Shown here piece after piece: positions 5,655 through 42,030 of a stretch of DNA of 42,030 bases. The stretch is from a virus. Taxonomy: Duplodnaviria > Caudoviricetes. The position numbers and the translations under genes were made by a program. Where the stretch lies: IMG/VR virus record IMGVR_UViG_3300034110_000260, positions 1 through 42,030 of that record; one strand, given 5' to 3'. Below the pieces are notes generated by a model. That model did no database searches. It had not been told where the DNA came from and worked only from the letters and a program-made list of their open reading frames with translations. The number at the start of each line of letters is the position of its first letter. Position 1 is the stretch's first letter.

Positions 5655-6359
5655 TTAGGTGACTACGCCACCGGATTTAATGAAACTCATTTTCTCAGCC
5701 GGATTCATTGATTCGAATTGGCCGCGTGTGGCTTTAGGTTTGTTGGCACCGCCTTGACCTGTTGAGCCTTGAGCGTTGCCACCGCCTTTGGTGACAACAC
5801 CTGCTTTAAGCAGTGGCGCAAAGCTATCATCTTTCAACAACTCCGCTTTGAACCCTGCCAAATCTAACGATGAGGCACCGCCATCATCATTTAAAAACGT
5901 AACTTTGCCCGTTTCTGGGTCAATGTCGATACGGTCTGCAACTAGGCGCTTAAATGCTTTACTGCCTGAATCTGTTGCTAACTCGCTCGCTAAATCTGCT
6001 ACAAGTGCAGAGCGTTTTTCGGTCTTGATGCTATTGGTCAATCGATCAATGCGCGATTGAAACTCTTTAGCTGTCTCACCATGTCTGCGTTCAAGGTCGG
6101 CAATAATCTCATCCGTCTTGCCTTCTGCCTTGAGTTTCTCAAGTGCCTTACGCTCTGCTTCAGCCAGCTTCTCTGCTTGCTGCTTTTCAAATTCTGATAA
6201 ACGGCTTTTGACCGTCTTGTTTTCTTCTTTGACGTTAAACGCTAACTGCTTAAGCGCTAGGCTGTCTTTGTCTTGATAGCCTTTCTTACCGTCTATTTCT
6301 ACTTCTACAAACTGATCGCGCCAATCTTCTGGCACTTTTTCTAATGATTCAACAAACAT
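5655..6359 (-). CDS. Capsid scaffolding protein
   Basis: Charged coiled-coil, Gly-rich linker, C-terminal FESMNPAEKMSFIKSGG coat-binding-type tail; between portal and coat; ATG at 6359 preferred (GTG 6368 possible). Confidence 0.82.
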   Translation of the reverse strand: MFVESLEKVPEDWRDQFVEVEIDGKKGYQDKDSLALKQLAFNVKEENKTVKSRLSEFEKQQAEKLAEAERKALEKLKAEGKTDEIIADLERRHGETAKEFQSRIDRLTNSIKTEKRSALVADLASELATDSGSKAFKRLVADRIDIDPETGKVTFLNDDGGASSLDLAGFKAELLKDDSFAPLLKAGVVTKGGGNAQGSTGQGGANKPKATRGQFESMNPAEKMSFIKSGGVVT

Positions 6360-6362
6360 TGT

Positions 6363-6394
6363 AGGCACCGCCTCTAGTTATGACGCACCGCGTC
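6363..6394 (-). promoter_or_regulatory. Twin GCGGUGC hairpin operator in scaffold leader
   Basis: GACGC-GGT-GCGTC (6394-6382) and AGGC-GGT-GCCT (6373-6363), 20 nt apart. Confidence 0.65.
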
Positions 6395-6403
6395 GCTGTA
6401 GTG

Positions 6404-6432
6404 ATTTTATACCCGTTAAACTAAACCGTCAA
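6404..6432 (-). promoter_or_regulatory. Sigma70-like promoter TTGACG-17-TAAAAT for scaffold-coat
   Basis: Near-consensus hexamers with 17-bp spacer overlapping portal stop. Confidence 0.65.
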
Positions 6433-7875
6433 ATTCTCGCCACTATCGATGGCATCAAGCACCGATTCTGCATCATCCATAGACCAACCGCCCTCTGCTA
6501 GTTCGCGAATTGCTAAGTCTCGCGGCTTGAGTCCTGCAAGCACTAATTCCATAATCACGCGCACTTCTTCAACCGATAACTTCGACTTAGCGAATGTGCG
6601 AGGAAGGCTGATTACTACTTGATCCATGCTTTGCTCGATGGCATCAGCGCCCCATAACCCCTCAAACATGCCGCAGTATAAAATTGCTTTCTGATATGCA
6701 GATTCTAAGCCTTGAGCCAAAGCAACTAAGCGAGCATTATTCTCTGCTGCTGCAATCTCTGCTTCGGTAGCTGTTGCGGCTTTAACGTCACCTTGCAGCA
6801 CTGCGCCCATCTGCCGAGCTTCTTGTGTGTTGCGCTCAAAGTATGACTCGTATGGAGTCACTGACGTTTCACAGCCAATGACTTCAACTGTGCATCCTTC
6901 CGGTAGCGTGTTGCGACTGCCTGAGCCTGTTTCGATGTAGCTGCGCCCGTTTGCTGCCTCAAATTGCTCGATAAAGTTACTGCGCGCACCGAAAACGTAA
7001 GTAGTTGGTGGCAAGTTGCGAATAGTCTCTTTATATTCAGCGCTCATGCGGTAGCGAGCAAGTGCCAAGTCGCAAATCGGACTGATAAAGCCCATCTGCT
7101 TAGGCAATACGCCTGCTTTGATTTCTTCGTCTGATGCAAATGTAACCGGTAGCCAGGTTAATGCTGAGCCGCTAACAGTCATGTAACTGCGTTCGCCTTC
7201 TTCTAGTCCTGTTGAGCGTTTAACAATCTTTTGCTGGTAGTAATTGCCATCTTCGTCAAGCGCTAACACTAGGTAAGACTCTACATCGGCATGCGTTGCT
7301 GTGTACGGATCAAACTCTGTGCCATCTTCGCGTAGCATTATGTACGTCAACTGCATAGCGCCATTGATGCGCGAGAAATGCCAGTTAACCACTTTGTCGC
7401 GGTTGTAGGCTTTGATTGTGGCGCGAGGGTTAGCGCGCTTAACATCTTCGATTGACACATCAGTCAAATCAACTTCAGACAGCCCAAGATAATCAGATAC
7501 AAGGACCTGCCATTTAATAGGCATTAGCTCTGATGCTGTTTGCTCAATCATGCCTGTCAAGCTAGTGCCGTCATTATCGGCAGATTCTAGCAGGTAGCTC
7601 AGCCGCTCTGGGATTTGAATATCAGCTTCTTTTATCTTCATCCTGCCAAGCAATGATGCCAACGTCTGACCGCCATAGTTTTGATACTCAGCATTAGCAA
7701 TGTAAATCGCATAACGATTCTTAGCATCAACGGTTGTCTTGTCGCCGTCGCTCGGATGCGGCAATAAATCATACTGAGCTTGCTTAACAAAGAACTCACC
7801 AGCCAAGGCAATTCTTGTTTCTTCAATCTTCGGCAACATCAGCGCCGCTTCGGTGTGTAATGTAATCTGCTGCAT
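6421..7875 (-). CDS. Portal protein (DUF4055-like)
   Basis: 484 aa, LLPHP..RYAIYIANA.Y.N pattern, MGA..TATEA motif; position in head module. Confidence 0.8.
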   Translation of the reverse strand: MQQITLHTEAALMLPKIEETRIALAGEFFVKQAQYDLLPHPSDGDKTTVDAKNRYAIYIANAEYQNYGGQTLASLLGRMKIKEADIQIPERLSYLLESADNDGTSLTGMIEQTASELMPIKWQVLVSDYLGLSEVDLTDVSIEDVKRANPRATIKAYNRDKVVNWHFSRINGAMQLTYIMLREDGTEFDPYTATHADVESYLVLALDEDGNYYQQKIVKRSTGLEEGERSYMTVSGSALTWLPVTFASDEEIKAGVLPKQMGFISPICDLALARYRMSAEYKETIRNLPPTTYVFGARSNFIEQFEAANGRSYIETGSGSRNTLPEGCTVEVIGCETSVTPYESYFERNTQEARQMGAVLQGDVKAATATEAEIAAAENNARLVALAQGLESAYQKAILYCGMFEGLWGADAIEQSMDQVVISLPRTFAKSKLSVEEVRVIMELVLAGLKPRDLAIRELAEGGWSMDDAESVLDAIDSGENLTV

Positions 7876-7908
7876 GTTGCGCCTCTAATCGTTTTTAATA
7901 GTTTACTG

Positions 7909-9006
7909 CTAAATGCCAATCTTAGCAAAAGCCTTGCTGTCTCGCTCGCGTAACTGCTCTAATGTTAACGGATTGCCAAAGGTGTCAGTCATGCTTTCAA
8001 TCTTCAATCCGCCATCCAAGAACAGCTCTGCGCGAGTCTTGCCGAGTGAGTCAATAACGAACTCTCTCGACTGTTGGCGCAACCATGCGTCCGGTGAAAT
8101 ATCAGCAGGCACTTGCTCAATCTTGAACGTGCCGAGGTCTTTGCGCCCTTTGTAAGTCGGCTTTTTATCGTCATCAGTTGGATAGTCAGCGCCTGAGCCG
8201 ATTGCAGGAGCCATGCCAATAGGCTTGTCTTGACCTTCTAGCAGATAAACATAACTTGACCTGCATCTGAAATGCCGAGGCAATCTAACATAGCTGTCAT
8301 CTTCTAGCTGCCATGTGCGACCATGTAAAGAGCGGCAACCAAGTGATGTGCGATTGTCGAGCATTGCAAGAAAGTAACGCTTGTCGATTATATCGCGGTT
8401 ATCAACTGCCATTGCCTCTCGTGCGCTTTGTGCGTAGTGCATGACGCCTGTGCGAGCCAACGCTTCAGCTTGTTGCTTAGCTAGCCCTTCGTTGAAAGTC
8501 TTGAGTGACTTAGTGATTTGCTGAACTGTTGCGCCGCGAGTGTAGCCAATCTTCACAAGGTTATTGTATTGCTGTGCGTATTCTTGAGTCGCAGTGTTTA
8601 CAAACTCAGCCCATGCGCCAACCTTTGCGCGCTCGCCTTCGCCAAGTACCATTAAAGCCGCATTGACATAATCAATAATTGACTTACTGACTGGAGTAGC
8701 CAACTCGACATCATTCCATTTGCCTATTAACTCTGCATAGTAGCTAGACTCGTAAACCGCCAGCGATTGCAACTCTTTAGTTGCTTCTTGCCAGCCTGCC
8801 GAGTAAATCTCTGTGACTGACTTGCCAATAGCTTTCGTTATCCGGTTAAGCTGCGCTGCGCTCTTAATTTCTTCCTGAGCTAACAGGATTTCGCGCACCG
8901 ACTTGTAAGCATCTGCAAGCGACGGGTAGACATTAGTTTTTAGCAAGCCAGTCGCCACTCGTTGCAGCATTGCTTCATGGCGTAGTTGATCAGCGGTTAG
9001 ACTCAT
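7909..9006 (-). CDS. Minor head morphogenesis protein (SPP1 gp7 / MuF family)
   Basis: LARTGV..LDNRTSLGCRSLHG..LPRHFRCRS MuF motifs. Confidence 0.88.
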   Translation of the reverse strand: MSLTADQLRHEAMLQRVATGLLKTNVYPSLADAYKSVREILLAQEEIKSAAQLNRITKAIGKSVTEIYSAGWQEATKELQSLAVYESSYYAELIGKWNDVELATPVSKSIIDYVNAALMVLGEGERAKVGAWAEFVNTATQEYAQQYNNLVKIGYTRGATVQQITKSLKTFNEGLAKQQAEALARTGVMHYAQSAREAMAVDNRDIIDKRYFLAMLDNRTSLGCRSLHGRTWQLEDDSYVRLPRHFRCRSSYVYLLEGQDKPIGMAPAIGSGADYPTDDDKKPTYKGRKDLGTFKIEQVPADISPDAWLRQQSREFVIDSLGKTRAELFLDGGLKIESMTDTFGNPLTLEQLRERDSKAFAKIGI

Positions 9007-9172
9007 CTATTAAATCTCTCAATGCTGTAGCTAGTATTTGAAGCATTATGGCTTTATCGCCGTTATAAGGCAAACCCTGAGCCATGCGGCGTATATCTGT
9101 TAAGCATAAAACGTGAACAGCTTCAGCAGTTGCAACAACAATATGCGGCTGATGCTCTGACAGGTTTATCAT
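8990..9172 (-). CDS. Hypothetical protein
   Basis: ATG at 9172 coupled to terL stop. Confidence 0.6.
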   Translation of the reverse strand: MINLSEHQPHIVVATAEAVHVLCLTDIRRMAQGLPYNGDKAIMLQILATALRDLIDESNR

Positions 9173-10419
9173 CTGCGGCCCCATGCTAGCGGTGCTGTGA
9201 TTGGTCTAACAATCGGCATCAGGTAGCAGACAGGATAACCAAAGGCGTCAGATTGATGGTCAAGCCCACCTTTCTTGTCAGGCTCGCCGTTGTTGTCGTA
9301 TGGCTGCTGCTCGATGCACTTTGCTGACTCCGGACATGCTACGGCATTAATCCACAAGCGCCCTTCTTCAAAGGCTTTGTTAACAGATATAACCCTGTCT
9401 TTAACTCTTGGGTTTGAATCGTGCGCAATGACTGAAAACTTGGCATTCTCAAGCAGACCAATATCAGACAAAGAAGCGCCTTTGCTGCTTGTGTTCTTGC
9501 CGCTTGCGTCAGGATAGATTGATATTTTGTGACCTTGCGATTGCCAACGCTCTTGAATGAGCTTAATCATGTAAGGCGTATCTTGTCCGCCGCTAATCTC
9601 TGCGACTTGGTGCATCCCTGTTGGACGCTGCACGAATACGCAAGCGGCCATTTTGCCGACGTTAAAATCCATGCCGATGATTAAGTGATCATGCGGTTGT
9701 ATAACTTCGTGCGAATTGCAGCGCTGCCGATTGTATGACGGGTAAACGCTGCCGGATGTAAGGTTAACAAACTGCCCGCGCAAATAGGCTTGAATTAAGC
9801 CTGCCGGATAAGTCTCTAACAGAGTATCGATATAATCCGGCGGTAGATAGTCTGCGTTCTCATAAGTCGAAGCCTGCACCATTGAGTAGCTTTGTGTTGG
9901 ATTCTCTTTAAATTTACTGTAAACGAATAAAAACCCTTCCGGCGTAGTTGTAACACCTATTCCGTTTTCGACACCTGGAATAACCAAGCGCAAGCGGGCC
10001 ACTATTTTATTCCATGCAAGAGTAGCTTTGTTTTTTGGTAGCGTGTCGATTTCATCAACCAACGCTCGCGCAATCTTAAAGCCTACGATAGATGCAGGAT
10101 TATCCATTGATCGACAAATCACAGTCCCGTAATAAACGCGCCCGCGATAGATGTGAACTTCTTTGTGGCTTTCGATAATATCAACGCGAAAGCCCATCAT
10201 TTCTGCGGCTTCGGTAAATGTCGGATAGAAAATATCCCTTATCGAAGGATAAGAAGTGCCAAAGTAACCCTGTACTGTCTTTGGGTTCTGGCTTGCGAAT
10301 ATCAGCAAATCCAAGCAGCCAACAAACGTCTTGCCTGAGCCAAAACCGCCAACGTAAGCGCGATATTTGGTATTCAGGCCATTAAGGAAGATATTCTGCG
10401 GTGCGCTAAGGCTTAGCAT
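9169..10419 (-). CDS. terL: Terminase large subunit
   Basis: Walker A GGFGSGKT, Walker B ALVDE, TTTPEG, nuclease GMDFN and DHQSDA. Confidence 0.95.
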   Translation of the reverse strand: MLSLSAPQNIFLNGLNTKYRAYVGGFGSGKTFVGCLDLLIFASQNPKTVQGYFGTSYPSIRDIFYPTFTEAAEMMGFRVDIIESHKEVHIYRGRVYYGTVICRSMDNPASIVGFKIARALVDEIDTLPKNKATLAWNKIVARLRLVIPGVENGIGVTTTPEGFLFVYSKFKENPTQSYSMVQASTYENADYLPPDYIDTLLETYPAGLIQAYLRGQFVNLTSGSVYPSYNRQRCNSHEVIQPHDHLIIGMDFNVGKMAACVFVQRPTGMHQVAEISGGQDTPYMIKLIQERWQSQGHKISIYPDASGKNTSSKGASLSDIGLLENAKFSVIAHDSNPRVKDRVISVNKAFEEGRLWINAVACPESAKCIEQQPYDNNGEPDKKGGLDHQSDAFGYPVCYLMPIVRPITAPLAWGRR

Positions 10420-10807
10420 TCGTTATTTCTATGCTGTCTGCTGCATGTCTAACTTCAAAAGTGATCGCCAATGGCTGTGCTTTTGTTTCTTCATCTTCAT
10501 CAGCCGGAGCTTTATCAGTCCATTTGAATCTGTTGGCAAAGTACAGCTTCACAAGTGGCGCGTTAACCTCTCTCGAAAGCATCATGTCTTCTAGCTTAGT
10601 TTCCCAAGCTGCTTGGCTCCACTCTTGCGCCAGCGTTAATGCGTCCGAAAAATCTTGATGCTCTTGCGCCCACAGATAGACAGTTGACTTGCTAACTCGA
10701 AGCTCAAAAGCGAACTGAGTCACAGATTTGCCTTGTACGCCGACAAACTCTAAAGCTCGCTCGATGTATTCAGGTTTGTATTTAGATGGTCGCCCTAACT
10801 CACTCAT
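10406..10807 (-). CDS. terS: Terminase small subunit
   Basis: GRPSKYKPEY followed by HTH (VSKSTVYLWAQEHQDFSDAL); immediately upstream of terL; ATG 10807 preferred (GTG 10816 possible). Confidence 0.85.
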   Translation of the reverse strand: MSELGRPSKYKPEYIERALEFVGVQGKSVTQFAFELRVSKSTVYLWAQEHQDFSDALTLAQEWSQAAWETKLEDMMLSREVNAPLVKLYFANRFKWTDKAPADEDEETKAQPLAITFEVRHAADSIEITNAKP

Positions 10808-10808
10808 A

Positions 10809-10842
10809 TCAAGCACCGCTCAATAAACACCAGCACCGCTGG
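10809..10842 (-). promoter_or_regulatory. Twin GCGGUGC hairpin operator in terS leader
   Basis: CCAGC-GGT-GCTGG (10842-10830) and TTGAGC-GGT-GCTTGA (10823-10809), 20 nt apart. Confidence 0.65.
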
Positions 10843-10863
10843 CAGATTTGTTGAGTATAGCGC

Positions 10864-10888
10864 AAAAGAAAGCCGCTATAAAGCGGCT
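10864..10888 (-). terminator. Terminator ahead of packaging genes, followed by -10-like TATACT (10859-10854)
   Basis: AGCCGC-tttata-GCGGCT-TTCTTTT. Confidence 0.7.
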
Positions 10889-11450: not shown

Positions 11451-12203
11451 TTAAAACATATCCAATTGAATTTCAGACCTTGAGTACGATACTTTTTTTA
11501 TTAAATTTATAGAGTCTGCCGAATTTAACTGCTCTATCCTTTCCACTAAAACGGCAGCTCTAGTCTCTTTGCTAGCTGGCTGATATGTTCCTCGCCAAGC
11601 GCTATCTATGCCGATATTGCGCGCTACATTTGTGCTATCTGCTGATGACAAAGGAAGTCTAGAAAAAACAACCGGATTAAGCATACGCAGACCATGCAAC
11701 TTACATATTGGCCTTCCGTTTCTATCGCAGATATGCGGCAACACATCAGCCATGCGATCAATTAATCGCTCCGGCTTAGATACGTCATATTCGCCAGAGC
11801 TGCCAATTGCTACTGTTGGCCATTCATTTGCCAGCATAACTAAGCGATCAATTGATTCGTTTGTATGCCAAACTGCCGCAGCTTGATGCTTTTTAAACGG
11901 CCAATCATCAAGAAGGCTGTTGTTTTCTTCTTCTGAGCCTTCAATCACGTCAGGAACTACAGCAAAGTCAAATCCTGGATGATTGCGCCACAAATCAACC
12001 CACTTAAAATATGAATCCCAATCGATGGATTTTCCTGATTTCCAAAAGCTAAAAGCTCCATTATCAAGTGAAAAGCTCTGACAAATCTCAGCAGCCAAAC
12101 CTAGCTGCCGATAATCCGCAAAACTTATAAATGCGTGCCTCCCTTTCCATGTCTTTATTGCGCATGGATCGGGAGTGATTGGGCCGCCATGGTAATGAAT
12201 CAT
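11451..12203 (-). CDS. TGT/DpdA-like base-exchange transglycosylase (putative)
   Basis: Ordered motifs LDNGAF, PDVI, VWH, VAIGS, LHGL, SADST as in the TGT/DpdA TIM barrel. Confidence 0.6.
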   Translation of the reverse strand: MIHYHGGPITPDPCAIKTWKGRHAFISFADYRQLGLAAEICQSFSLDNGAFSFWKSGKSIDWDSYFKWVDLWRNHPGFDFAVVPDVIEGSEEENNSLLDDWPFKKHQAAAVWHTNESIDRLVMLANEWPTVAIGSSGEYDVSKPERLIDRMADVLPHICDRNGRPICKLHGLRMLNPVVFSRLPLSSADSTNVARNIGIDSAWRGTYQPASKETRAAVLVERIEQLNSADSINLIKKVSYSRSEIQLDMF

Positions 12204-12959: not shown

Positions 12960-13829
12960 CTATTTCATACAGTTAAAAATGTGGGCGATAACGTCAACCG
13001 TCCAGCCGTTAATCAGCACCTTATAAGCCTGACTGTTACTTACCGCAGCAGTGTAACCATCTGGCACTGTTTGCAGCTTTTCGCAATGATCAACTGAATA
13101 TCTGAAAACGCGCGGATCGCTATGAATATCAATCCTGCCTGTCTTAGTTAGTGGAATGTGTGCGCCTTTCATAACAACAACATCCATTTGACTGTGGTTG
13201 CCTGCCGCATTAGCAGTTCCAGTCAAGCAGGTTGACTTTTTGCTTGAAGGTCTTGCTTTGTTTGGCTTGTCTTTTTGGTATATGTCAAAGCTGTCATCTG
13301 GTAAGCCTATAACATCAGCCAACACAATTCCTTTATCTTCTGGCTGAGTTATTTCCCAATTCGCCCAGTAGTAACGCTGTCTGTTCTGAGCGCTAACTAG
13401 GTTAGAGTTTATAAATACTGGCTCAACTCCAAGCATTTCAGTAATAACCGCCAGATGCTCTTTCTTCATATTGACATTCTCAAGTAAGAATTTTACATCA
13501 GGATTAACTGAGCGGATATGATTCAAAATATCCACGTACACAAAAAACAATTTGCTTCTTGGGTCATCAAAAGCCAGTTGCTTACCTGCAAAGCTAAAGC
13601 CTTGACATGGCGAGCCGCCGATCAATAAATCAATACTCTCCCAATCAATGCTCCAATCTCGCCAGCCTGTAACATCGCCAAGCCGGATTATGTCTGGATA
13701 GTTAGCTTGCGATACCTGAGTTGCAAACTTGTCGATTTCGCTTGCATAGTATTTATCAACTTTTAAGCCTGCGCGTTCTGCTGCAATCATGCCGCAACTC
13801 ATTCCGTCGAATAAAGATAAAATATTCAC
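12960..13829 (-). CDS. DNA cytosine-5 methyltransferase
   Basis: LSLFDG (motif I), GGSPCQGFS (IV), LLENV (VI), QNRQRYYW (VIII), NGW (X). Confidence 0.95.
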   Translation of the reverse strand: MNILSLFDGMSCGMIAAERAGLKVDKYYASEIDKFATQVSQANYPDIIRLGDVTGWRDWSIDWESIDLLIGGSPCQGFSFAGKQLAFDDPRSKLFFVYVDILNHIRSVNPDVKFLLENVNMKKEHLAVITEMLGVEPVFINSNLVSAQNRQRYYWANWEITQPEDKGIVLADVIGLPDDSFDIYQKDKPNKARPSSKKSTCLTGTANAAGNHSQMDVVVMKGAHIPLTKTGRIDIHSDPRVFRYSVDHCEKLQTVPDGYTAAVSNSQAYKVLINGWTVDVIAHIFNCMK

Positions 13830-22834: not shown

Positions 22835-23341
22835 ATGAACAGAGACTGCTGGTCAACGCCAAAAGAAGTATTCAAAGCATTGGATTTTGAATTTAGTTTT
22901 ACTGTCGATGTTTCGGCAAGTGCTGAAAATACTCACTGCCAGGAATATATCGACGAAACAGAAAACGCTTTAGGCTGTCGCGAGTGGACGCCTGACTTTT
23001 ATCTTGACTCACCTGCTGGTCATTATGTTTGGTGCAATCCGCCATATTCAGACATTATGCCATGGGTAAAGAAAGCCGCAGAGCAGTCAAAGCGCAACGG
23101 CATAGGCGTAGTGATGCTGGTTATGGCTGACACTTCTGTCGGCTGGTATGCTGAAGCAATCAAAACCTGTCAAGAAGTGCGCTTTGTGATCGGTGGCCGA
23201 TTGGCTTTCATCAATCCAGAAACAAAGTTACCTGTTGGCGGAAATAACAAAGGCAGCATGTTTTTAATTTGGCATCCGTTTGCCAAAGGCGATTTGGTTA
23301 TTAAGCACGTTCACCGCAGTGAATTAATTGGGAGCAAATAG
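22835..23341 (+). CDS. Phage N6-adenine DNA methyltransferase (phage Dam family)
   Basis: WSTP..DVSASAEN..WCNPPYS..GRLAF..GNNKGSM. Confidence 0.92.
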   Translation: MNRDCWSTPKEVFKALDFEFSFTVDVSASAENTHCQEYIDETENALGCREWTPDFYLDSPAGHYVWCNPPYSDIMPWVKKAAEQSKRNGIGVVMLVMADTSVGWYAEAIKTCQEVRFVIGGRLAFINPETKLPVGGNNKGSMFLIWHPFAKGDLVIKHVHRSELIGSK

Positions 23342-41114: not shown

Positions 41115-41561
41115 TCAGCCCCTTTGCAATCCTGAATTGCCTCTCACAAACGGCATTAGCAATCTGTCAAGCTCTGGCACTCGCGCCTTGTATGTTACCT
41201 GCGAGCCGGATTCGTAACTAACCGACTTTGAACCAACGCCATCGAGCGATTTGGATTCTGCTGCAATTAATCCGCCAGCAAGCACAGTTGCATCAAGTGA
41301 CAATCTTCCTGCCTGTTGTAGCTCAACAGCTTTTAATGCTGCCTTGCTAATATCAGCAATGGCAACAACATCAGTCGGCAAGCTCATTGCCTGCGCTGCG
41401 TCTAGCTCTTGGCCTTTGAAGTTGTAGTAGGTATCAATGAAGTCAGCAGATAGGATCAAATCTTGGTCAAGCGTTGCATTTGATACAACAATCCCGCGCT
41501 CTGCTGCGTAGGCTTCATAAGCTGCTGCTGTAGTGTAAGAGTTTGTGCCGAGTGTAGCCAT
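41115..41561 (-). CDS. Head-tail connector/adaptor (DnaT-like family)
   Basis: TNSY..YAAERG..ADFID..FKG..Q..VGSKSVSY..LDRLLMPF. Confidence 0.78.
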   Translation of the reverse strand: MATLGTNSYTTAAAYEAYAAERGIVVSNATLDQDLILSADFIDTYYNFKGQELDAAQAMSLPTDVVAIADISKAALKAVELQQAGRLSLDATVLAGGLIAAESKSLDGVGSKSVSYESGSQVTYKARVPELDRLLMPFVRGNSGLQRG

Positions 41562-41911
41562 TACTTACCCCCGAAGGCGAACAAAGCTGCAATAGCTGCC
41601 GGACTGAGTAAAGTTGAAACCAGCAGCCAGCTAATCTTTCCGCCGAAGTTTCTGATGCTGTCAATCATCGGCTGGTTTGCTGCGGCTTGCTCGCGTAAAG
41701 CTCTGACGTCTTTTGATAGCTCGCTAGACTGAGCTGCAACGTGGTCATGCTTTACCATATACTGCTGAAGGGTAACAACTAAATCCTGAATAGCCTTCGT
41801 CGATGACTTTTGACTTTCAATCATGTCACGGGAGAAACTGCGTATCTCGATGATCTCCCTGTCGTGCTGGTCTACTTTCTTCTGGATGCTGCCGATCAGT
41901 TCTTCGCTCAT
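41561..41911 (-). CDS. Coiled-coil protein with C-terminal TM helix, copy 2
   Basis: 116 aa homolog of 2299-2646. Confidence 0.8.
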   Translation of the reverse strand: MSEELIGSIQKKVDQHDREIIEIRSFSRDMIESQKSSTKAIQDLVVTLQQYMVKHDHVAAQSSELSKDVRALREQAAANQPMIDSIRNFGGKISWLLVSTLLSPAAIAALFAFGGK

Positions 41912-42030
41912 GTTTCATGGCCTTACATAAATTTAGAATCACTATTAAAGCGATTATAGTTTGAACTGTTACCAGTACGCAAACGACTATTAATATGTGT
42001 TCGTTCAACGGCTGCACTCCCTAGCACCGC
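41904..42030. repeat. 127-bp exact direct repeat, copy 2 (contig end)
   Basis: Identical to 2639-2765. Confidence 0.95.

Follow-up and report, generated by a model that had tools for sequence, protein, structure and literature searches.

The scaffolding protein of phage P22 (gene 8) is said to autoregulate its synthesis post-transcriptionally, in work of 1985 by Casjens and Adams and by Wyckoff and Casjens. To our knowledge, the RNA target and binding mode of this autoregulation were never pinned down, and we know of no account of P22 that includes co-control of terminase. For phage SPP1, the small terminase subunit G1P reportedly represses its own synthesis at pac/PL, at the level of DNA. 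The MS2 coat operator and Mu Com/mom are phage translational operators, and so is that of T4 gp32 (PMC10690425). Fremin et al. 2023 (PMC10690425), with a set of 8,495 IMG/VR models, list six further GP20 csRNAs and several terminase-adjacent candidates; the GP20 section of that paper deals with gut, soil and wastewater phages, names hosts among the Firmicutes, gives the function of GP20 as unknown and draws no link from GP20 to terminase. Here we describe an element of paired hairpins with three-nucleotide loops that stands before both the scaffold gene and terS, the gene for the small terminase subunit, in a 42,030-nucleotide virus record (IMG/VR IMGVR_UViG_3300034110_000260; Caudoviricetes), which was analysed whole and is called the window below.

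A first-pass annotation, made from the letters of the window alone, had reported two GCGGTGC cores 20 nucleotides (nt) apart in each of the two leaders, and the cores lie where it had placed them (Table 1). Each closes a GGU-triloop hairpin with a different, yet paired, outer stem; all four stems were recovered, the proximal one of terS (TATTGAGC/GCTTGATA) having 8 base pairs (bp), two of them G-U. The start ATGs, at 6359 for scaffold and 10807 for terS, are both 9 nt past the loop GTG, a sigma70-type promoter-like element is present just upstream of each leader, and PHROGs families identify the downstream genes as scaffold and terS, all as the annotation had it. Relatives keep -35 and -10 hexamers similar to those before the scaffold leader, as well as the -10 (TATACT) of the terminase element. 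By itself, the 7-mer GCGGTGC is common in the window, where it occurs 20 times and 6.1 occurrences would be expected; the scaffold and terS leaders are the only gene starts there with twin hairpins, and no NGU hairpin was found at the window's coat, portal, MuF, terL, Ad1, tail and holin starts. In the terS leader the triloops form with a probability of about 0.96; in the minimum-energy fold of the scaffold leader the two cores pair mutually, and each triloop has a probability of about 0.5. Neither of the 53-nt leaders has a significant fold z-score (0.54 and -0.89), such scores being uninformative for leaders so short.

For relatives, the motif was scored with a script descriptor. Portal and scaffold searches yielded 116 distinct scaffold leaders, falling into 65 clusters at 80% identity. 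The distal hairpin is present in 47 clusters, the proximal one in 40 and either in 51; both occur together in 36, and in none of 100 rounds with shuffled leaders. A terminase-side twin is present in 18 of the 26 clusters with enough sequence. What relatives retain of the shared operator first described is a covarying, RNA-level twin hairpin at both starts; the identical GCGGUGC core, the 20-nt spacing and the 9-nt distance to the start codon are not kept. The hairpins are 20-47 nt apart in relatives, and the proximal loop begins 6-11 nt before the AUG or its GU starts the GUG codon (a loop-to-start distance of 1 or 6-11). The exact window pattern followed by ATG was found at 42 IMG/VR loci, 29 of them scaffold or terminase-operon starts and the other 13 unrelated, mostly GC-rich chance matches.

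The loops are strand-specific. A loop-blind test of the 65 cluster leaders found 58 perfect triloop hairpins with stems of at least 5 bp, of which 42 have NGU loops and none ACN, against a mean of 0.34 NGU hairpins in shuffled leaders; any base can occupy the first loop position (A13, C13, G12, U9). The 47 distal hairpins have 37 different 5' arms and most proximal stems are just 3-5 bp long. Arms vary while pairing stays, and in close relatives a double change converts one C-G pair of the distal scaffold stem into U-A, which bears out the covariation noticed at first within the window. Internal stem mismatches of the NGU hairpins comprise 16 G-U, one A-C and four others; the stems of a second class, with NGG loops, contain 13 G-U and no A-C. 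Judged by these comparisons, the conserved element is a pair of N-G-U triloop hairpins (N-G-G in one lineage group) with freely varying stems. Since its loops are strand-specific and its mismatches G-U, the element appears to act as single-stranded RNA of the coding strand and not as a duplex palindrome. The proximal hairpin covers the Shine-Dalgarno (SD) sequence or the start in 40 of 40 cases, with a paired fraction of 0.94 compared with 0.34-0.37 when slid, a result that is partly built in by the selection and is not relied on.

The loci retrieved amount to 5.1 Mb, redundancy included, and on their two strands 108 distinct twin sites were counted: 77 at scaffold genes, 25 before terL, five before similar first genes (open reading frames, ORFs, judged by eye to resemble first genes of terminase operons) and one elsewhere. 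Thus, 107 of the 108 mark a scaffold or terminase-operon start. Vibrio phage 1.228.O has the twin at both starts. H105/1 and HS1 combine a twin at terS with a variant at scaffold, and Vibrio 1.151.O a twin at terS (read across the ends of the record) with one hairpin at scaffold. Pseudomonas Ab26, Alteromonas R9Y1, Klebsiella S6a and G406 carry the twin at scaffold but not at terS; in Ab26, the element directly follows the MuF stop, without an evident -10. As for individual variants, four tandem NGU hairpins precede the scaffold gene of Klebsiella phage VLCpiS6a (L201:6660-6751), an H105/1-like clade (L072, L265-L269) has a GUC or GUU distal loop with a GGU proximal one, and twin AAC loops stand before one scaffold type in the scaffold leader of L097.

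Guernseyvirinae-like loci (58) have twin N-G-G hairpins in both leaders, just past the -10 element, and no NGG loop occurs in 28 distinct Guernseyvirinae coat leaders. When all 16 loop dinucleotides were scanned, GT accounted for 105 of 121 window-side twins and GG for 36 of 40 Guernseyvirinae twins. NGG loops are also present in Shewanella phage 3/49, as a twin at terS and a single hairpin at scaffold, and in Oceanospirillum phage GJ44, as a twin at both leaders. Loop type goes with the lineage of the phage and not with its host: NGU is found in Klebsiella phage S6a, NGG in Salmonella and E. coli phages. Because the two sites, 4-6 kb apart, change loop jointly along phage and not host lines, they point to a single phage-encoded reader, probably a protein. 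The Guernseyvirinae scaffold promoters (L306-L354) also have a conserved inverted repeat, GGAATA-ATT-TATTCT, just upstream of the twin hairpins.

Scaffold, terminase small subunit (TerS) or coat had been named at the outset as possible binders. Of the proteins in 14 compared genomes, scaffold, portal, MuF, Ad1 and Neck1 alone occur in every one, and no shared non-structural family was found there among ORFs of at least 50 amino acids (aa), a search that shorter or diverged ORFs could escape. Four first genes without relation to one another stand behind one and the same terS leader: three are small terS-like ORFs, and the fourth, of 401 aa, may be ParB/methylase-like. In L053-L055 the leader is kept, the scaffold C-terminus is different and the window coat has no match. 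Compared with the coat of an NGU phage, that of GJ44 reaches 485 bits; against SE2 and 3/49 it reaches at most 17. As both proteins are swapped behind unchanged leaders, and as GJ44 has NGG loops with an NGU-phage-like coat, TerS and coat are disfavoured as binders, and free scaffold is, on these comparisons, the best candidate. Portal, too, differs (76% identity) behind identical leaders. As a negative control, the same TerS beside another head module was sought, and 4 of 4 phages examined had the same portal family.

Phylogeny adds a little to this. For SE2 and 3/49, all head-gene trees are concordant and do not discriminate. In the portal, MuF and Ad1 trees (the latter built with FastTree), the NGU phage 1.228.O is sister to SE2 and 3/49 with supports of 0.94-1.0, and GJ44 is placed outside; in the scaffold tree, GJ44 joins SE2 and 3/49. 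The scaffolds of these three NGG phages share an N-terminus of the form YTx(A/E)E..GLK, which is absent from the NGU phages compared, most of which have a small domain in its place. With GJ44 as the discriminating phage, the N-terminus of scaffold thereby seems, weakly, to fit loop type better than do coat, portal and TerS. PDB matches of the scaffold to designed PPR proteins proved to be sums of 2-bit repeats, and a PPR-like assignment was rejected.

Scaffold and terminase are recycled assembly factors that do not form part of the virion. We rate at slightly better than even the proposal that the twin hairpins are a translational operator through which free scaffold represses its own translation and that of terminase. 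Host sigma70 promoters would transcribe both units. As long as coat draws scaffold into procapsids, free scaffold would remain low and both leaders would be translated; upon scaffold excess, or its release during DNA packaging, scaffold would bind both loops, probably as a dimer via its N-terminal part, a dimer being a plausible match for the twin. Bound scaffold may stabilize the weak proximal stem, of 3-8 bp, over the SD sequence or start codon and so block initiation. The output of terminase large subunit (TerL) would follow that of TerS through coupling, while coat, portal and minor head protein, encoded on the same transcripts, would keep their own ribosome sites and be spared; the two recycled factors would be capped jointly. 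Coat, portal and MuF genes are unmarked in the same units, so gene-specific translational control fits better than control at the transcript level. An SPP1 review describes scaffold as exiting upon packaging. The fuller claim that scaffold is a sequence-specific RNA-binding regulator, reading an NGU/NGG triloop code set by its N-terminal segment and co-repressing scaffold and terminase, with the supply of packaging motor thereby made responsive to procapsid occupancy, and that such control spans a large lytic siphovirus group including common Salmonella, E. coli and Pseudomonas phages, is put forward more tentatively, at somewhat below even.

Several observations weigh against the scaffold operator. 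Under the strict rule, 14 of the 65 scaffold clusters lack a hairpin despite having the scaffold family; they consist of variants (A-U closing pairs and GUU/GUC, AAC or NGG loops) and true absences. No twin was found at the starts examined of the Loki scaffold, phiHSIC and 1.110.O, where the scaffold family is likewise present. No more than 8 of 15 genomes have identical distal loops in their two leaders (permutation mean 4.1, p 0.017, uncorrected for kinship). The grouping of NGG phages in the scaffold tree has a support of 0.64 and involves three lineages only, without GJ44 every head-gene tree groups these phages alike, and the N-terminus of scaffold is encoded in physical linkage with the scaffold leader. 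The N-terminus rule is broken by Vibrio phage 14E30.2, whose scaffold is of the 1.228.O type although its one hairpin has an AGG loop. Six RNA runs came up, as contigs only and with shares of at most 0.12. AlphaFold models of the scaffold (pLDDT 81, pTM 0.41) and of its middle domain (pLDDT 81) match no known fold and display no RNA-binding fold: Foldseek returned no match for either and VIA gave Z scores of at most 5.7 (coiled coil) and 4.4, negatives that imply neither a new fold nor an absence of RNA binding. Moreover, sequence does not fix repression as opposed to activation.

The same translational operator might be read by portal, MuF, Ad1, Neck1 or a small phage protein that escapes clustering through divergence, which we consider unlikely. 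The four named proteins are as universal as scaffold, feedback by portal and MuF on the terS-headed unit in which they sit is plausible, and 14E30.2 departs from the scaffold N-terminus rule; however, the portal, MuF and Ad1 trees require two origins of NGG or a reversal, and the four phages with a twin at scaffold and none at terS, like the divergent portal behind identical leaders, speak against such a reader. A shade less probable is an RNA element with a positive or non-translational role, be it stem opening as by Mu Com or a 5' hairpin that stabilizes, processes or antiterminates late transcripts. The distal hairpin begins 4-15 nt past the -10 hexamer in 32 of 47 cases (background 12%), near the predicted 5' end, which also fits a transcript 5'-end role and so counts against the scaffold operator as well; late timing is left unexplained by sigma70-type late promoters without a Q-like PHROGs match, and the proximal stem of terS is stable unaided. 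Against such roles are the shortness of most proximal stems, the finding of no regulator gene common to the 14 genomes among ORFs of at least 50 aa, the element of Ab26, internal to the transcript as far as can be read from its sequence, and the fact that an effect on the transcript would hit coat too.

The remaining explanations are less probable. A host RNA-binding protein of CsrA or aconitase type, acting on loops as on an iron-responsive element (IRE), is improbable: the motif does span phages of many Gammaproteobacteria, and CAGUG is among the loops, C-AGU-G resembling the IRE loop, but the first position of the loop is unconstrained and, across host families, the lineage of the phage goes with the type of loop. 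A CsrA/RsmA site has GGA in its loop, whereas the present loops are NGU or NGG, lack a GGA consensus and are of GA type in 2 of 121 twins. TerS or coat as binder is very improbable on the evidence of the four first genes behind one leader, of the four phages with a twin at scaffold alone, of the coat swapped behind identical leaders and of the GJ44 coat, even though terminase reportedly represses its own synthesis in SPP1. Equally improbable is that the two late promoters are followed by an operator in double-stranded DNA or by a pac-related site. Inverted repeats just past -10 elements are in the classic repressor position, and the twin AAC loops, the reverse of GTT, before one scaffold type would suit such an operator; the arms, on the other hand, have no common sequence across phages, NGU outnumbers ACN by 42 to 0 and G-U exceeds A-C by 29 to 1 over the NGU and NGG groups, and the proximal copy is positioned by the start codon. 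A palindromic duplex operator would call for conserved half-sites, an orientation-free centre and no G-U bias, none of which is observed. A distinct palindrome, TGGTCWGACCA, occurs in 16 of 483 loci, often in the scaffold promoter region and with either centre orientation (L098:7486-7496, L187 with four copies, L097 with two, L140, L188, L191, L260 and L262); it is likely to serve a subgroup as a DNA operator and to be distinct from the RNA hairpins.

The window is the whole 42-kb record and encodes, on the minus strand, a siphovirus head-tail gene set (PHROGs on 61 ORFs). Its head genes run from terS through terL, a MuF-like minor head protein, a DUF4055 portal and scaffold to coat (Table 1); the overlap of terS and terL makes it likely that terL is translationally coupled to terS. 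None of the 61 ORFs matches an integrase, CI or Q in PHROGs. The portal family has four loci in GTDB genomes, each on contigs of metagenome-assembled genomes, and the scaffold profile matched 1 of 400 genomes scored, the query centre itself. With no integrase, CI or Q match and few loci in GTDB genomes, the phage group therefore looks mostly lytic. The window carries lambda-like replication and nin genes. At 11451-12203, 12960-13829 and 22835-23341 lie a stand-alone gene resembling tRNA-guanine transglycosylase (phrog_887) and two DNA methyltransferase genes. The ends of the window, 2293-2765 and 41555-42030, are alike over about 470 nt (81-99% identity); past the shared end, the left side (346-2299) has a P22 gp10-like head-closure gene (phrog_578) and the right side has Ad1, a sign either of chimerism in the assembly or of an alternative module of podovirus type. 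In one relative, a tRNA is located upstream of terL (L112:2125-2202).

Table 1. Hairpins, promoter-like elements and genes of the two leaders, in window coordinates.
Feature	Position	Strand	Details
Scaffold leader cores GCGGTGC	6385-6391 and 6365-6371	minus	20 nt apart
terS leader cores GCGGTGC	10833-10839 and 10813-10819	minus	20 nt apart
Scaffold distal hairpin GACGC[GGU]GCGUC	6382..6394	minus	5-bp stem GACGC/GCGTC
Scaffold proximal hairpin AGGC[GGU]GCCU	6363..6373	minus	4-bp stem AGGC/GCCT, over SD-like GAGG
terS distal hairpin UGCCAGC[GGU]GCUGGUG	10828..10844	minus	7-bp stem TGCCAGC/GCTGGTG, 2 G-U
terS proximal hairpin UAUUGAGC[GGU]GCUUGAUA	10807..10825	minus	reaches start codon
Scaffold/coat unit promoter-like element, sigma70-type	6404..6432 (6432-6404)	minus	TTGACG-17-TAAAAT, 10/12
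Terminase unit promoter-like element, sigma70-type	10854..10882 (10882-10854)	minus	TTTATA-17-TATACT, 9/12
Terminator-like hairpin upstream of terS promoter	10871..10888	minus	
Head scaffolding protein gene, candidate reader of hairpins	5655..6359	minus	234 aa, phrog_206
Terminase small subunit gene terS	10406..10807	minus	133 aa, phrog_309; overlaps terL start
Terminase large subunit gene terL	9169..10419	minus	14-nt overlap with terS

No published description of the twin triloop element was found, although the supplement of Weinberg 2017 and the alignments of Fremin 2023 may hold one. The searchable supplement files of Fremin 2023 contain no match to the element, and the main text of Weinberg 2017 does not mention GP20, scaffold or terminase. 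In the window, neither Rfam GP20-a (RF02991, cut-off 47.2 bits) nor GP20-b (RF03003, cut-off 36.2 bits) gave a match at E<=10, and no Rfam family reached its gathering threshold; five relatives gave tRNA only at E<=1, and seven reference loci gave nothing. The scaffold leader of Listeria phage A118 (L203:4500-4590) has two hairpins with CGTAAAAA tracts, and L369:219-273, which shares the A118 word, falls short of the GP20-b cut-off with 23.4 bits.

No binder is known to have been assigned to the structured leaders that are on record upstream of GP20 scaffold genes. The proposed minimal operator is about 35 nt long, its two natural specificity classes can be used for swaps, and cultured, tractable carriers are available in Jerseyvirus/Kagunavirus, Ab26 and H105/1. 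If scaffold does control terminase, head assembly and packaging would be joined by a direct feedback not found in the literature searched, and scaffold with its leader would be a small orthogonal RNA-protein switch.

Compared with P22, the proposed system shares scaffold-specific, post-transcriptional control in a head operon with free scaffold as the proposed signal, and its cis element is found at the start of scaffold but not at that of coat. It differs in offering a defined RNA site of which natural specificity variants are available, in that the leaders of P22 genes 8, 3 and 5 contain no NGU hairpin and in that the scaffold profile finds nothing in P22, gp8 being unmatched; the likeness is, in our view, functional analogy and not homology. 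GP20-a and GP20-b, too, are leaders with structure that immediately precede scaffold (PF06810/GP20) genes, and GP20-b has two hairpins as well, but its consensus has loops of 8-10 nt and UAAAAA tracts where the window element has triloops. The window scaffold has no PF06810 match, those of R9Y1 and H105/1 match weakly (E 1e-5 and 6e-4, below cut-off), and Atlas look-alikes of the scaffold from PF06810, DUF6651 and DUF4355 score under 0.9. With SPP1 G1P the element would share negative control of terminase synthesis, which in SPP1 is DNA-level and specific to TerS, whereas here TerS is exchangeable and the element RNA-like. T4 gp32, MS2 coat and Mu Com/mom are alike in that a phage protein binds a small structured RNA where ribosomes attach; they involve other folds and proteins, and none is known to couple scaffold with terminase. 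The element is real, conserved and apparently uncatalogued, and would be a variant of scaffold-leader operators with terminase as a new second target and a natural specificity switch.

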